A stretch of 12,001 nucleotides of DNA from a virus (IMGVR_UViG_2711768053_000012:1-12001); one strand, 5' to 3'. Positions 2,960-11,609 are shown, counted from the first letter of the stretch. Program-made: numbers and translations. Notes: a model not told the origin generated them from the sequence alone.

Positions 2960-3607
2960 TTATAGGTTGAACTGTACACCTTTTGCTACGGCAACAATTT
3001 TACACTCTGGCGTAAGCAAGGATGATTGATAGCGCGGATTGAGAGGGCTTAAATACACAAGTTTTCCATCAATAACTAATTTTTTTATAGTCATAGACGG
3101 TTCATTTGTAAGAGGATCTGGAACTATTACAGCGACGATACTGCCATTTTTATAACTTTCTCCTGGTCTTAGGATCACAGTGGCACCAACTGGGATACTT
3201 GGCGACCCTGAGGGGTTATGCATAGTGTCATCAGGCATTGAAACGGCAAAATCACCTTCCACTACATCAAAGAATGTGGTGATCCTATCGACATTTCCCA
3301 TTGTTTTCTCTCCTTCTAAGATTAGGAAAGAAATCGCGTCACCCCACGAAAAGTAGGGGATCTTGGTGCCTGGATTGCTCTGCACAAAAGATAGTTCAGG
3401 AGACGATACTCCATACAGGAGATAGGACTCAGTAGTTCCTAATGCTTGGGCTAACTTACTTAGAGCTTTGCTGCCGGGTTCGTTTAGATCTTTCTCCCAG
3501 TACCCTATAGTAACCCCAGTCACGCCTGAAAGCTTACCCAGTTCTACTTGGGTGAGTCCCTTATCTTTTCTGAGTTTCTTAAGCCTGATGCCAAGGCTTT
3601 CCATCAT
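2960..3607 (-). CDS. CI-like prophage repressor (N-terminal HTH_XRE, C-terminal S24 LexA-type self-cleaving peptidase)
   Basis: 215 aa. N-terminal HTH (LTQVELGKLSGVTGVTIGYWE). C-terminal S24 signatures: Ser in AVSMPD and Lys in IKKLVIDGKLVYLSPLNPRYQ, the latter closely resembling lambda CI [27 protein letters not shown] Shine-Dalgarno upstream of the ATG at 3607. Divergent from the cro-like gene. Confidence 0.9.
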   Translation of the reverse strand: MMESLGIRLKKLRKDKGLTQVELGKLSGVTGVTIGYWEKDLNEPGSKALSKLAQALGTTESYLLYGVSSPELSFVQSNPGTKIPYFSWGDAISFLILEGEKTMGNVDRITTFFDVVEGDFAVSMPDDTMHNPSGSPSIPVGATVILRPGESYKNGSIVAVIVPDPLTNEPSMTIKKLVIDGKLVYLSPLNPRYQSSLLTPECKIVAVAKGVQFNL

Positions 3608-5366: not shown

Positions 5367-5768
5367 ATGGGGACTATTTATACCGAAGAACAGCGGGAAA
5401 GATTACAGCGTCATATCGTTGACCTTGTGCGTAAAAACGGGCGTATGACAATGCCACAACTGGCATCGGCAACATATGCTTCACATGATTCCATTCGCCG
5501 GTACCTGAAGATGCTGGTGAGCGAGGGCGAAGTGTATGTTGTCAGCGGAAAAGGGGTATTCCTTTCAGAGAGGGTTTACCGTGAATGGCTGGCAAGTTCG
5601 GCAAGAAAAGCAAGGGTTATCCGCAAACCAGCACAAAAACAGGGTAAGGCAGGAGCACAACCCTATGACCGGCACCAGAACATAATTTGCCGTGAGTGCC
5701 GGAAGAGTGAAGTTATGCAGCGTGTACTGGCGTTCTATCAGGGAGATTTTCAGGAGGTGATGGAGTGA
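5367..5768 (+). CDS. Hypothetical phage protein with probable winged-helix DNA-binding N-terminus (133 aa)
   Basis: AGGAGA Shine-Dalgarno 5 nt upstream of ATG. The segment NGRMTMPQLASATYASHDSIRRYLKMLVSEGEV is wHTH-like; basic C-terminal tail. No helicase-loader features. Confidence 0.6.
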   Translation: MGTIYTEEQRERLQRHIVDLVRKNGRMTMPQLASATYASHDSIRRYLKMLVSEGEVYVVSGKGVFLSERVYREWLASSARKARVIRKPAQKQGKAGAQPYDRHQNIICRECRKSEVMQRVLAFYQGDFQEVME

Positions 5769-6070
5769 GGGTGAGGGTTTATATCGCCGGTCCGATGACC
5801 GGGTATAAAAATTTCAACCGTGAGGCGTTCCACAAGGCGGAAGAGGAACTGAAACGGGAAGGGCATACAGTCTTAAACCCAGCAGTACTTCCGGACGGAC
5901 TGACGCAGCCACACTATATGGATATTTGCATGGCAATGATTCGTTGTGTGGATGCGATTTACATGCTGAAAGGCTGGCAGCGGTCAGCAGGTGCTAAGGC
6001 AGAACTGGCACTGGCGGAGAAGCTGGGGCATGCAGTTATTTTTCAGGAGGCAACCAGTGAGCAACATTAA
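5765..6070 (+). CDS. DUF4406-like protein (nucleoside 2-deoxyribosyltransferase-like fold), 101 aa
   Basis: GTG start at 5765 overlapping the upstream stop, AGGAGG 7 nt upstream. N-terminal VYIAGPMTGYKNFNREAFHKAEEELKREGHTVLNP matches my recollection of the DUF4406 signature (YIAGPMTG...NP). Confidence 0.65.
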   Translation: MRVRVYIAGPMTGYKNFNREAFHKAEEELKREGHTVLNPAVLPDGLTQPHYMDICMAMIRCVDAIYMLKGWQRSAGAKAELALAEKLGHAVIFQEATSEQH

Positions 6071-6611
6071 TTACCAGGCACTGCGAATGGCGGCAGAAAA
6101 TGCAACCCCTGGCGAATGGTGTTCTGATGATTATGGGGTAATTGCCGATGCCGGACTGAACGCAAATTACTACATAGCATCATGCTCAGGACCAGATAAT
6201 CGCGCCAATAAGCGATTCATAGCGGCAGCCAATCCGGCTACCGTGCTGGCAGTGCTTGATGAACGGGGAGCCCAAAGCAAACGCATTGCAGAGCTGGAAG
6301 CTAATCTTGTGGCGCTGGCGGCGGAGAATGCAGGGCTGAATAAATTTATCGCACAGAGTTGCTACGTGTTTGATGGCGAGCAGGATGAAATATCTGATGC
6401 GTATATCTGCGCAAGAGACGGAGGTATGCCGCAAACCACGGCTACAGATGCTCTCCTGGCTGATGTACGGGCGGTGGCGTTTGACGAACTTCGCGCGGCG
6501 TTTGTCAGGCACGCAAAAGTTGCAGGACTGGATGATGCCGATACCGTAACGCTTAAGGAAGTGACAGAAGCATTGTTGCATTGTGCGGAACAGATTCGCT
6601 CGCCTGAATAA
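6057..6611 (+). CDS. Ead/Ea22-like phage protein
   Basis: The track ORF starts at 5991 inside the previous gene. I prefer the in-frame GTG at 6057 (AGGAGG 6045-6050, 6 nt upstream); an ATG at about 6090 is an alternative. The N-terminal motif INYQALRMAAENATPGEW resembles the conserved start of Ead/Ea22-like proteins as I recall them. Confidence 0.6.
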   Translation: MSNINYQALRMAAENATPGEWCSDDYGVIADAGLNANYYIASCSGPDNRANKRFIAAANPATVLAVLDERGAQSKRIAELEANLVALAAENAGLNKFIAQSCYVFDGEQDEISDAYICARDGGMPQTTATDALLADVRAVAFDELRAAFVRHAKVAGLDDADTVTLKEVTEALLHCAEQIRSPE

Positions 6612-6705
6612 TTAAATTTAGTGTTGCAAATAAAATTTAATCCTTAACCGGAGGGATTCCTACACCCTCAGAACATCAGGAGGCCGCCCGAAAGGGCGGT
6701 AATGA

Positions 6706-6924
6706 ATGGTCACATTATTCAGAAAAAAATATCCACGAAAGAGTAGAACAACAGAATTCCTGTTTCTCATTCTGTTTATCGTGTTAATGATACCGATATC
6801 CCCGCTAATTTTTGTCTGGGCAATCGGGAAAATAATTGAGCCAGTTATTGAATTGTATAACGACGTGGTATGGGCGTCGTTCAACACACTGCACAATAAA
6901 ATTAATCCGTATAAGGAGAACTGA
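6706..6924 (+). CDS. Hypothetical small membrane protein (72 aa; basic N-terminus plus one transmembrane helix)
   Basis: Track ORF. Product MVTLFRKKYPRKSRTTEFLFLILFIVLMIPISPLIFVWAIGK... Stop at 6922-6924, 1 nt before the next gene's ATG. Region is AT-rich by eye. An AGGAGG at 6678-6683 is separated from the ATG by a GNRA-loop hairpin. Confidence 0.5.
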   Translation: MVTLFRKKYPRKSRTTEFLFLILFIVLMIPISPLIFVWAIGKIIEPVIELYNDVVWASFNTLHNKINPYKEN

Positions 6925-6925
6925 T

Positions 6926-7444
6926 ATGACCACTATTACCAGAGAAAACGCGGAGATTAAATCATTCATCACTGGTTTCCTGAGCGACCCGGCGCACGAT
7001 ATCCAATCTTCAGACAGCCTGCTTGCCAATGTGTTTCGTATCGCACTGGCGTCACTGGAAGCAGAGCCAGTGGCGTGGAAGGCAACCTTCACGCAAATTG
7101 ACAATGAATATAATACGTTCACTGCTCTGTATTCTGACAAAGCAGAAGTCGAACGGTGGGTGCGACTGCATGAAATAGGTGACTTTCGGGCAGAAATAAC
7201 ACCGCTTTACGCAGCGCCGTCAGCGCCGGTAGCTCCAGATGGTTGGATAAGCTGTAGTGAGCGAATGCCAAAAGATGGTCAGCACGTAATTATTTTATGT
7301 GATGGCGCATTCGTTCTTTATGCGCAATATCGGGACGGTGAGTTTTTTGATGTCGTCCGCAATGGTGAGGAATTCTTCGAAACGCAGAGCCGCAATGTAA
7401 CCCACTGGATACTGCTACCGGAGCCGCCGCAGGAGGTGAACTGA
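6926..7444 (+). CDS. Phage protein with C-terminal DUF551-like domain (172 aa)
   Basis: The track ORF starts at 6836 inside the previous gene; ATG at 6926 has an AAGGAGA Shine-Dalgarno 6 nt upstream. C-terminal ...THWILLPEPPQEV matches my recollection of the DUF551 C-terminal motif. Confidence 0.65.
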   Translation: MTTITRENAEIKSFITGFLSDPAHDIQSSDSLLANVFRIALASLEAEPVAWKATFTQIDNEYNTFTALYSDKAEVERWVRLHEIGDFRAEITPLYAAPSAPVAPDGWISCSERMPKDGQHVIILCDGAFVLYAQYRDGEFFDVVRNGEEFFETQSRNVTHWILLPEPPQEVN

Positions 7445-7836
7445 TGAATGAAGGCGACAATGTTATCACCCTGGTGCAGCCAAAATCAGAGGAGGAAGGG
7501 CTCCTTAACGTTGTGATAACCGACAGAAAAAGCGGCGAGCAAAAATACTGTCAGCATATCCGTACAACAATTTCAGAAGTGAAGCGTACGATTACCTGCA
7601 ACCGATGCGGATTGGCTTTAGAACCGTTCGAACTTGTTCTCGACCGTGCGAGAAACGGTGAAAACATCGTGTCAGAGATTAAATCACTCTATGCAAAGCG
7701 GGATGCTCTTCGTGAAGCTGTGGCAAAACTTGAACGTGAAGAGAAAAACGCCAAAGCCCGGTTGCGAGCAGCCAGGACTGCAATACTGTATGCGGAAAAT
7801 GACCTTAAAAATATTGGGCAGGAGGTGAATCGATGA
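7444..7836 (+). CDS. Hypothetical phage protein (130 aa) with Cys pair and C-terminal coiled-coil-like region
   Basis: ATG overlaps the upstream stop (TGATG), AGGAGG 7 nt upstream. CQH...C...CNRC residues and a heptad-like charged C-terminus (AKRDALREAVAKLEREEKNAKARLRAAR). Confidence 0.65.
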   Translation: MNEGDNVITLVQPKSEEEGLLNVVITDRKSGEQKYCQHIRTTISEVKRTITCNRCGLALEPFELVLDRARNGENIVSEIKSLYAKRDALREAVAKLEREEKNAKARLRAARTAILYAENDLKNIGQEVNR

Positions 7837-7916
7837 CCTGGCCTGAGGCATTTACTACGGTAGGAATTGCGATGGCGGTGGCGCTGGTGGTGTATTCGAT
7901 TTGCCGCTGGGGATAA
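7833..7916 (+). CDS. Small hydrophobic peptide (27 aa), translationally coupled
   Basis: Below the ORF-track cutoff; my own translation is MTWPEAFTTVGIAMAVALVVYSICRWG. ATG overlaps the upstream stop (ATGA), with a consensus AGGAGG (7820-7825) 7 nt upstream. Single predicted transmembrane segment. Confidence 0.45.
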   Translation: MTWPEAFTTVGIAMAVALVVYSICRWG

Positions 7917-8127
7917 AAACGGTTTGCGGGAAAAGGAGAGTTAAGTAGAATTGCTGCGGGTGCTTGAGGCTATCTGCCTCAGGCATGAACACCAAAAGGC
8001 AGATAGAGAAAAGCCCCAGTTAACATTACGCGTCCTGCAAGACGCTTAACATTAATCTGAGGCCCAATCTATGTCTCACAAATGTAGGTTAGCCTCTTAC
8101 GTGCCGAAAGGCAAGGAGAAGCAGGCT

Positions 8128-8283
8128 ATGAAGCAGCAAAAGGCGATGTTAATCGCCCTGATCGTCATCTGTTTAACCGTCATAGTGACGGCACTGGTAA
8201 CGAGGAAAGACCTCTGCGAGGTACGAATCCGAACCGGCCAGACGGAGGTCGCTGTCTTCACAGCTTACGAACCTGAGGAGTAA
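8128..8283 (+). CDS. hokD: Hok/Gef family type I toxin (51 aa)
   Basis: Product MKQQKAMLIALIVICLTVIVTALVTRKDLCEVRIRTGQTEVAVFTAYEPEE matches my recollection of E. coli HokD (RelF) and aligns closely with Gef/Hok. AAGGAGA Shine-Dalgarno 8 nt upstream of the ATG at 8128. The track ORF starts at an upstream in-frame ATG (8071) giving 70 aa. The upstream leader is highly structured and a terminator follows. Confidence 0.85.
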   Translation: MKQQKAMLIALIVICLTVIVTALVTRKDLCEVRIRTGQTEVAVFTAYEPEE

Positions 8284-10559: not shown

Positions 10560-11609
10560 ATGCGGGTATTGCTTCGACCTGTTCTGGTACCGGAACTCGG
10601 GCTGGTGGTCCTTAAGCCTGGTCGTGAATCCATGCAGGTATTTCATAATCCTCGAGTGCTGGTGGAGCCGGAACCGAAAAGCATGCGCAGTCTGCCGTCA
10701 GGAGCTGTTCCTGCCGTTCGCCAGCCGCTCGTGGAAGATAAATCATTACTGCCATTTTTCAGCGATGAGCGGGCGATTCGTGCTGCTGGCGGCGCTGGCG
10801 CATTGTCTGACTGGCTCCTGCGTCATGTTAAATCCTGCCAGTGGCCTCATGGTGACTATCACCACAGCGAAACCGTCATACATCGTTACGGTACCGGCGC
10901 AATGGTGTTGTGCTGGCACTGTGACAACCAGCTGCGCGACCAGACATCAGAATCACTCGGGCAACTTGCTCAACAAAACTTGTCAGCATGGATGATTGAC
11001 GTCATCCGTCACGCAATGAATGGCACACAGGAGCGGGAATTATCGCTAGCTGAATTATCCTGGTGGGCGGTCTGCAATCGGGTAGCGGACGCGCTACCGG
11101 AGGCAGTATTACGTCGTTCTCTGGGGTTACGTGCGGAAAAAATCCGTTCGGCGTACCGCGAAAGTGACATCGTACCGGGAGAGCAGACAGCCACCAGCAT
11201 ACTGAAGCAGCGCACAAAAAATATTGTGCTACCGCCTCACGCCCACCAGCAACAGAACCCACCACAGGAAAAGACGGTGGTCAGCATTGCCGTTGATCCG
11301 GAGTCTCCTGAATCTTTCATGAAACGACCTAAACGTCGCCGTTGGGTTAATAAGAAATACACGCGCTGGGTAAAGACACAGCCGTGTGCGTGTTGTGGTA
11401 AGCCAGCCGACGATCCCCATCACCTGATTGGTCACGGTCAGGGAGGGATGGGAACAAAGGCCCACGATATTTTCACGCTACCGTTGTGCCGGGAACATCA
11501 CAACGAACTTCATGCGGATCTGCTGGCGTTCGAAGAAAAGCATGGTTCTCAGGTTGATTTAATTTTTCGTTTTCTTGATCACGCCTTTGCAACCGGCGTG
11601 CTCGGGTAA
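10560..11609 (+). CDS. DUF968-like protein, YdfU-like (349 aa) with C-terminal Cys/His-rich region
   Basis: GGAGG Shine-Dalgarno 4 nt upstream of ATG. C-terminal CACCGKPADDPHHLIGHG...CREHHNELH looks like a zinc-binding/HNH-like motif. Length and position (after a hok toxin, before nin-region genes) match my recollection of Qin YdfU. Confidence 0.65.
   Translation: MRVLLRPVLVPELGLVVLKPGRESMQVFHNPRVLVEPEPKSMRSLPSGAVPAVRQPLVEDKSLLPFFSDERAIRAAGGAGALSDWLLRHVKSCQWPHGDYHHSETVIHRYGTGAMVLCWHCDNQLRDQTSESLGQLAQQNLSAWMIDVIRHAMNGTQERELSLAELSWWAVCNRVADALPEAVLRRSLGLRAEKIRSAYRESDIVPGEQTATSILKQRTKNIVLPPHAHQQQNPPQEKTVVSIAVDPESPESFMKRPKRRRWVNKKYTRWVKTQPCACCGKPADDPHHLIGHGQGGMGTKAHDIFTLPLCREHHNELHADLLAFEEKHGSQVDLIFRFLDHAFATGVLG

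Follow-up and report, generated by a model that had tools for sequence, protein, structure and literature searches.

A portable Shine-Dalgarno and hairpin leader in Escherichia and Shigella prophages with the predicted layout of a split ribosome-binding site

The gene for a small DUF4014 protein in a prophage sequence from IMG/VR poses a problem of geometry. A consensus Shine-Dalgarno (SD) sequence stands directly before a GC-rich hairpin, and the gene begins just beyond that hairpin, such that the SD and the start codon are 22 nt apart. In linear mRNA, a spacing of more than about 13–15 nt is too long for an SD to function. How, then, could this gene be translated, and what is the role of the hairpin? 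We analyzed the site within a stretch of 12,001 nt (IMGVR_UViG_2711768053_000012:1-12001), the whole of which is referred to below as the window, and compared it with its relatives in other prophages.

The window is a lambdoid E. coli prophage. Beyond a cI-like repressor gene on the − strand, the + strand encodes, in order, a replication-type gene product and DUF977, DUF4406, Ead/Ea22-like, DUF4014 and DUF551 proteins. The features of the locus are as follows.

2960–3607, − strand: cI-like repressor (HTH and S24 peptidase)
5991–6611, + strand: upstream Ead/Ea22-like gene, 206 aa, stop codon TAA at 6609–6611 (Pfam PF13935, E 5e-18)
6612–6640, + strand: AT-rich inverted repeat (TTAAATTT...AAATTTAA) just after the Ea22-like stop codon; weak hairpin, −1.5 kcal/mol
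6641–6649, + strand: conserved TCCTTAACC, nearly invariant in 134 leaders
6651–6669, + strand: leader hairpin 1, GAGGG / 9-nt loop / CCCTC, −5.8 kcal/mol (predicted fold)
6670–6677, + strand: variable single-stranded spacer, AGAACATC, AAATCATC or AAAACATC (comparison of copies)
6678–6683, + strand: consensus Shine-Dalgarno sequence AGGAGG (sequence)
6684–6699, + strand: hairpin 2, CCGCCC-GAAA-GGGCGG, six G-C pairs and a GNRA tetraloop (predicted fold, variant spectrum)
6700–6705, + strand: A/U-rich 6-nt spacer TAATGA from the hairpin base to the start codon (sequence, comparison)
6706–6924, + strand: DUF4014 gene, 72 aa (Pfam PF13198, 89.9 bits, full length)
6926–7444, + strand: downstream gene with a DUF551 domain (Pfam)

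At the center of the locus, AGGAGG (6678–6683) abuts the 5′ arm CCGCCC (6684–6689), which is followed by the loop GAAA (6690–6693), the 3′ arm GGGCGG (6694–6699), TA (6700–6701) and ATGAATG (6702–6708), the whole reading ...CATC AGGAGG CCGCCC GAAA GGGCGG TA ATGA ATG GTC... on the + strand. The first-pass annotation had placed these elements correctly to the base. A repeat search returns the two arms as a 6+6 inverted repeat with no mismatch and a gap of 4 nt. The 22-mer formed by the SD and the hairpin occurs once in the window, and was absent from 200 of 200 dinucleotide-preserving shuffles, even when 3 mismatches were allowed. As RNA, hairpin 2 has a predicted energy of −12.4 kcal/mol, or −14.4 kcal/mol if a G6683-U6700 pair lengthens it to 6683–6700, and the predicted pairing probability is ~1.0 for all of its stem bases in a 149-nt context. 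Subtraction of the 16-nt hairpin reduces the distance from the end of the SD to AUG 6706 from 22 nt to 6 nt, and no other SD-like motif is present in the spacer (6700–6705). By sequence and predicted fold, the site combines the features of a split ribosome-binding site (RBS): a distant SD, a hairpin that could set the spacing, no alternative SD, and a start codon after the hairpin. Two aspects of the predicted fold count against this reading, as the SD is partly paired with upstream TCCT or CCTC, and the DUF4014 start codon sits inside a weak local AU-rich stem. The downstream DUF551 gene has an ordinary, contiguous RBS (AAGGAG at 6914–6919, 6 nt, ATG 6926).

The geometry depends on which codon is used as the start. 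The match to the DUF4014 family in Pfam covers positions 1–72 of 72, with the gene running from ATG 6706 to a TGA stop codon at 6922–6924; its product has a basic N-terminus followed by a hydrophobic segment. Two classes of leader precede the DUF4014 genes of IMG/VR. Class A carries the hairpin and has the form [A/G]GGAG[G/A/T]-CCGCCCGAAAGGGCGG-TAA[T/G][G/A]A-ATG, while class B lacks it and reads AAAGGAG-AGTGAT-ATG/GTG at the identical first codon. This shared codon in hairpin-less relatives indicates that, on comparative grounds, 6706 is the start codon of the DUF4014 gene. The choice of this in-frame ATG in the first-pass annotation is thus upheld, both by the hairpin-less relatives and by the full-length family match from residue 1. 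The distance to the start codon is 6 nt in both classes, measured from the SD in class B and from the base of the hairpin in class A. The two classes may be regarded as a natural swap experiment, compatible with a hairpin that is looped out of the mRNA path.

Two other reading frames at the site were considered and set aside. A mini-ORF from the overlapping ATG at 6702 is out of frame and has only 14 codons; its frame is not conserved, and the ATG at 6702–6704 is replaced by AAG or AAA in many class A relatives. An upstream ORF ending at the conserved UAA after the hairpin would lie in a frame without any start codon from the stop at 6631 to position 6700.

The site is not a property of the DUF4014 gene. 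We searched IMG/VR for GGAGN followed by the hairpin and read the sequence after each match. At least six types of ORF follow the identical SD and hairpin, to which the upstream leader TCCTTAACCGGAGGGATTYCTNCACCCTCANNNCATC is usually joined; three of these types can be assigned to Pfam families, and two have no Pfam match. The distance from the hairpin to the start codon is characteristic of each type.

DUF4014: 6 nt
DUF7167, a 60-aa acidic protein: 7 nt
Ea22-like/DUF551 proteins beginning MTELTKE or MAELTKE (ATG or GTG): 9 nt
related MAELTKEW-type ORF, short or truncated in the fetched loci: 8 nt
ORF without a Pfam match, beginning MQDIKEN: 9 nt
Q-antiterminator-like protein: 11 nt

The Q-like gene is the sole family at 11 nt, and also the sole one with a GGAG of its own after the hairpin. 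Elsewhere, the spacers are A/U-rich and contain neither GGAG nor GAGG. Dereplication left 152 contexts, 130 of which have a called start and no SD of their own. The start codon lies 5–9 nt past the hairpin in every one of these (130/130; 7 nt in 50, 9 nt in 40, 6 nt in 34, 8 nt in 5 and 5 nt in 1), and the orientation of the element is always that of the downstream gene. The distance to the upstream stop codon varies, from 66 nt in the window to 4 nt in a shortened form of the leader, while the distance to the start remains fixed. In samples that were not chosen by GGAG, this core is maintained in functional copies, with G, A or T as the sixth SD base. A generic scan for an SD, a hairpin and a start codon in 2.6 Mb of related lambdoid DNA returned other arrangements as singletons and this element hundreds of times.

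Three further matches illustrate how the element decays and how it can be mimicked. In one remnant (L062, 2499–2559), the SD is mutated to AGGAAG and no gene follows the hairpin; in another (L162, 12025–12055), an intact SD and hairpin are fused directly to unrelated sequence. Both look like decayed or freshly recombined joints. An exact copy of the 21-mer GGAGGCCGCCCGAAAGGGCGG in IMG/VR contig 3300009036_000333 (L121, 11455–11477) was rejected as a chance match, as it falls within the coding region for the small terminase subunit of a P2-like phage (...QEAARKGGNE...). It serves as a caution against calls made on pattern alone.

The proposal in the first-pass annotation, that the SD is too distant in linear sequence and that the hairpin mends the spacing, is partly supported by these comparisons. 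In its favor are the reduction from 22 to 6 nt by a stably predicted fold, the spacer free of any SD, the uniform distances across contexts, the AAGGAG-N6 arrangement of hairpin-less relatives, and the layout of a phage T4 site described below; together they suggest that the hairpin would bring the SD and ATG 6706 to a working spacing. The part of the proposal that tied the arrangement to a small membrane protein gene did not survive, as what was seen there is the core of a portable leader common to several unrelated genes.

If hairpin 2 acts as RNA, its variants should reflect base pairing. Sampling with an anchor outside the hairpin gave 297 copies. The consensus hairpin is identical over all 16 nt in 205 of the 297, and the loop is GAAA in most. 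The common variants are sense-strand C-to-T changes that keep a G-U pair (CCGTCC in 29 copies, CCGCCT in 19, CCGCTC in 3, GGGTGG in 2 and CTGCCC in 2), while variants that break a pair are rare, mostly singletons, and often located at the closing or terminal pair. In the haplotype CTGCCA-GAAA-TGGTGG, all six pairs survive four changes, among them a replacement of C-G by A-U. On the sense strand, C-to-T changes far exceed G-to-A changes among these 297 copies, which are not phylogenetically independent, and the excess could partly reflect strand-biased mutation. The substitution bias and the four-change haplotype are suggestive of selection on the stem as RNA. A formal covariation count (94.7% of cells paired, one two-sided change; observed measures reached by 114 to 287 of 500 shuffles) is not significant; the copies are too alike, with a mean column identity of 93%. 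Broken stems occur in 13 of 145 contexts without an SD of their own versus 2 of 7 with one, a difference in the direction predicted for a spacing hairpin but not significant (Fisher p = 0.14).

The loop tolerates some change. The downstream gene keeps its called start behind loops of GGAA, GGCA and TAAA, and behind a GAAAA insertion. In a metagenomic copy of the last kind (L253, ~1613–1640), an inserted A gives a GAAAA pentaloop on a stem with two G-U pairs, and the DUF7167 gene that follows is intact, indicating that loop size is not strictly fixed. Overall, the sequence is conserved beyond the fold, loop included, and more than a mere spacer requires. This points to an added constraint, for example recombination homology or recognition by a protein.

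The SD and hairpin 2 form the core of a conserved leader of 66 nt (6640–6705). Hairpin 1 is nearly invariant in 134 leaders; one copy (L145) has a compensatory change to GAGTG/CACTC, in which a G-C pair becomes U-A. The TCCT at 6641–6644, within the conserved block that precedes hairpin 1, is complementary to the AGGA of the SD, and their predicted pairing probability is ~0.5. The same UCCU and the loop of hairpin 1 (AUUCCU or AUUUCU) are each complementary to the SD. According to this folding model, the leader could fold back onto its own SD about half of the time. A short form of the leader, found in 66 of 334 copies, keeps only ~5 nt on the 5′ side of the SD. Upstream of the leader, the AT-rich inverted repeat at 6612–6640 hints at a conserved weak hairpin or a stretch prone to RNase E cleavage; a promoter scan of this stretch found none. 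On reading other upstream contexts, we observed a different sequence here, but again one with an AT-rich inverted repeat, whose loop in one case is GAAG. An imperfect inverted repeat of 27 nt (6593–6619 with 6633–6659, 70% complementary) joins the last bases of the Ea22-like coding sequence to the 5′ portion of the leader, GGAGGG among them, and is particular to this upstream neighbor.

Of 5,426 complete E. coli genomes, 2,153 carry the 66-nt leader, which occurs up to five times in a genome and at 2,770 places in all; among the matches listed, no annotated feature lies beneath it. In strain EC5654 (NZ_CP095086), the element is 100% identical over the 66 nt. A scan of species-representative genomes detected it only in E. 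coli and Shigella flexneri. Distant DUF4014 homologs (49–62% identical) in Escherichia phages D6 and HK225 and in Salmonella phages g341c, epsilon15 and ES18 have no such leader. Four of these five leaderless homologs are in phages of, or named for, Salmonella, and in all five phages the DUF4014 gene abuts or overlaps the preceding gene. In Stx phages, 933W and ArgO145 among them, the gene block itself occupies the leftward early region; in other prophages it is in the rightward region. One record, PP818812.1 (vB_Apl-pPE4, 11348–11417), contains the leader at 97% identity and gives Actinobacillus pleuropneumoniae as host; the element is otherwise limited to Escherichia and Shigella, and the host assignment or purity of this record may be doubtful. 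A literature search for the hairpin sequence, the leader family and "DUF4014" did not find them.

To our knowledge, split RBSs are textbook curiosities from a handful of genes, chiefly genes 38 and 25 of phage T4. These two are split, or noncontiguous, sites at which destabilization of the stem reduces translation (PMC3014915; PMC7297116). The hairpin of gene 38 shortens the SD-AUG spacing from 22 to 5 nt, and that at the junction of genes 26 and 25 (Nivinskas et al. 1999; Malys and Nivinskas 2009) shortens it from 27 to 11 nt; both are backed by mutational evidence, and the gene 25 arrangement is kept only within a close group of phages and is missing from distant relatives (PMC3014915). A broader literature search for additional split-RBS cases found none.

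The gene 38 site, which we read from the T4 sequence as AAGGAG-AGGGGC-UUCG-GCCCUUCU-AAAU-AUG (22 nt from SD to AUG; −16.7 kcal/mol), is the closest parallel. At both sites the SD directly abuts the GC stem, which ends in an extra-stable tetraloop; SD and AUG are separated by 22 nt of linear sequence, and there is no other SD. Both are intercistronic within a phage operon and have a short A/U-rich link between stem and start codon (4 nt in T4 and 6 nt here). The sequences, however, are unrelated: the T4 loop is UUCG instead of GAAA, and its 8-bp stem overlaps two bases of the SD. Furthermore, gene 38 is a single late gene of a lytic phage, whereas the element described here is known from sequence alone and is multi-copy, portable, and found in temperate prophages before several gene families. 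The gene 25 site resembles the leader in being taxonomically confined (the leader to Escherichia and Shigella prophages) and missing from distant homologs, but it belongs to one gene junction and has an effective spacing of 11 nt, whereas the leader moves between genes and has a spacing of 5–9 nt.

We lean toward the interpretation that hairpin 2 is the spacer of a portable split RBS. In this mechanism, CCGCCC-GAAA-GGGCGG on the rightward early transcript would be folded almost always. The AGGAGG next to its 5′ base would pair with the 3′ end of 16S rRNA, and the folded hairpin would be kept out of the mRNA track, allowing AUG 6706, 6 nt past the 3′ base, to reach the P site. The leader (6640–6705) is reused by E. 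coli and Shigella prophages before unrelated accessory genes at the joints where modules are exchanged; given this reuse and position, it would act as a ready-made translation start for any gene that lands behind it. From the anatomy, the comparisons and the T4 precedent, we infer that ribosomes read the SD with the hairpin folded, and that initiation is enhanced, rather than merely permitted, by it. The conservation of the sequence beyond the fold leaves room for a second role, in recombination homology or protein binding. More speculatively, and at odds that we would put rather low, the leader may be a plug-and-play adaptor that combines a homology patch for gene swaps with an insulated split RBS, whose rigid hairpin would shield the SD from the incoming coding sequence and give a new gene immediate translation at a preset level, and possibly also with the operator of one regulator of the whole set.

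The strongest competing explanation is that the leader is exclusively a recombination linker, whose conservation is maintained by homologous exchange at 25–66 nt, and that the downstream genes are translated weakly through SD-independent, A/U-rich initiation or through coupling. To assess the junctions, we clustered the flanks of 334 copies, taking 300 nt from the downstream side and 300 nt from well upstream. The upstream flanks fall into 25 clusters and the downstream flanks into 32; these occur in 77 combinations, and a single upstream cluster is paired with 18 downstream ones. Homology ends ~3 nt past the hairpin on the 3′ side, and on the 5′ side at TAATCC or, in the short form, ~5 nt before the SD; these limits define the SD and hairpin as the minimal shared core. 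A short conserved stretch with non-homologous modules on both sides and in many combinations is what characterizes a lambdoid boundary, and short conserved boundary sequences have been proposed as joints of lambdoid mosaicism (PMC3029335, citing Clark et al. 2001). The position of the leader is compatible with such joints, and conservation of the sequence, rather than of the fold alone, is also as expected for a linker. The boundary sequences (Susskind and Botstein; Clark et al. 2001, as cited in PMC3029335) resemble the leader in being short and lying between non-homologous modules, but are defined at the DNA level with no RNA fold required, whereas the leader contains an SD and a stable RNA hairpin and keeps a constant distance to the start.

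Several observations are left unexplained by a linker. These are the placement of a consensus SD exactly at the 5′ base of the stem, the constant distance of 5–9 nt to starts that have no other SD, the large excess of C-to-T changes (G-U in RNA) over G-to-A, and the loss of the gene behind the mutated SD of L062. Nor does a linker account for an orientation that always follows the downstream gene. We consider the exclusive form unlikely; as a second role, recombination is compatible with a split RBS. HNH endonuclease genes often adjoin DUF4014 genes (upstream in g341c and HK225, downstream in ArgO145), and homing-type mobility possibly contributes to reshuffling of the region. As for the element itself being the target of an HNH homing endonuclease, most of its copies have no neighboring HNH gene.

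The conservation of stem and loop beyond the needs of a spacer would also be expected if the hairpin were the operator of an RNA-binding protein, such as a phage translational repressor or an N-like factor, that switches a set of accessory genes. The presence of several copies per phage before different genes is in keeping with this idea. GNRA-type hairpins are known to bind proteins, as in lambda boxB, which is bound by N, a protein that also represses translation of its own gene. Like boxB, hairpin 2 has a short GC stem and a GNRA-type loop and lies on an early phage transcript, but boxB has a 5-nt loop on a 5-bp stem, whereas hairpin 2 has a 4-nt loop on 6 bp, abuts an SD and occurs in several copies per phage. 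We looked for a lambda-type nut site and rejected it: reading by eye shows no boxA (CGCUCUUA-like), >3 kb separate the site from the upstream repressor/cro region that holds the early promoters, and the element recurs up to five times in a genome. Against an operator in general are the tolerance of the loop for GGAA, GGCA, TAAA and GAAAA, the failure to identify a candidate binding protein, and the lack of an Rfam match. In Rfam 15, searched to E 10, only sok passes its gathering score in the window, and hits around the site are at chance level (E > 1). An operator is quite improbable.

We give equally little credence to a role in mRNA stability or processing, in which the hairpin would be a barrier to 3′-5′ exonucleases protecting the upstream cistron or, in a variant included in the same estimate, would, together with hairpin 1, shield the 5′ end of the downstream cistron as a stem-loop once the transcript had been cut in the AU-rich 6612–6640. 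A very stable GC stem with a tetraloop in a polycistronic early transcript, just downstream of an AU-rich and weakly structured stretch, would suit either function, and in the short form the hairpin lies 10 nt past the upstream stop codon. Yet the geometry follows the downstream start codon and not the upstream stop, and a stabilizer does not need an abutting consensus SD. RNase III substrates need a much longer stem than that of hairpin 2, which is far too short. A stabilizing effect could nevertheless exist alongside a split RBS.

An intrinsic terminator, whether it ended the Ea22-like gene or preceded the accessory gene (the latter an option raised in the first-pass annotation), has only a GC-rich intergenic stem-loop to recommend it and is highly improbable. 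Neither UAAUGAAUGG, which comes after the stem on the + strand, nor CCUCCUGAUG, its counterpart on the − strand, is a U-tract, and a terminator scan of 5500–8000 does not list the site. The flanking genes are co-oriented and closely packed, and copies of the element are found within operons, up to five in one genome.

The split-RBS layout itself is already known from T4; what appears to be new here is an unannotated, portable leader that serves multiple genes. If the split RBS is confirmed, this type of site would be far more widespread than its known examples, occurring in ~40% of complete E. coli genomes, Shiga-toxin phages included, and it would be a movable module instead of a one-gene oddity. 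It would also link translation signals to the mechanics of phage mosaicism, and would offer synthetic biology a compact natural RBS insulator. There is a practical consequence for annotation, as gene callers that demand an SD 5–10 nt upstream will score such starts as lacking one, and may choose the wrong start codon.

Annotations of nearby genes deserve comment. DUF4014 records in RefSeq and GenBank are labeled "released from the phage upon host infection", "acetyltransferase inhibitor" or "putative sugar acetyl transferase inhibitor". We saw no supporting evidence for these names, which look like labels spread from record to record. Farther downstream, the sok antitoxin RNA matches the window at 7958–8133 on the + strand (Rfam, 121.7 bits; gathering score 59) and overlaps a 70-aa ORF of the mok/hok kind at 8071–8283. 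The region 7958–8283 looks like a hok/sok-type type I toxin-antitoxin module within the prophage, and mok and hok are annotated at the corresponding place in a related Rac-type phage record.
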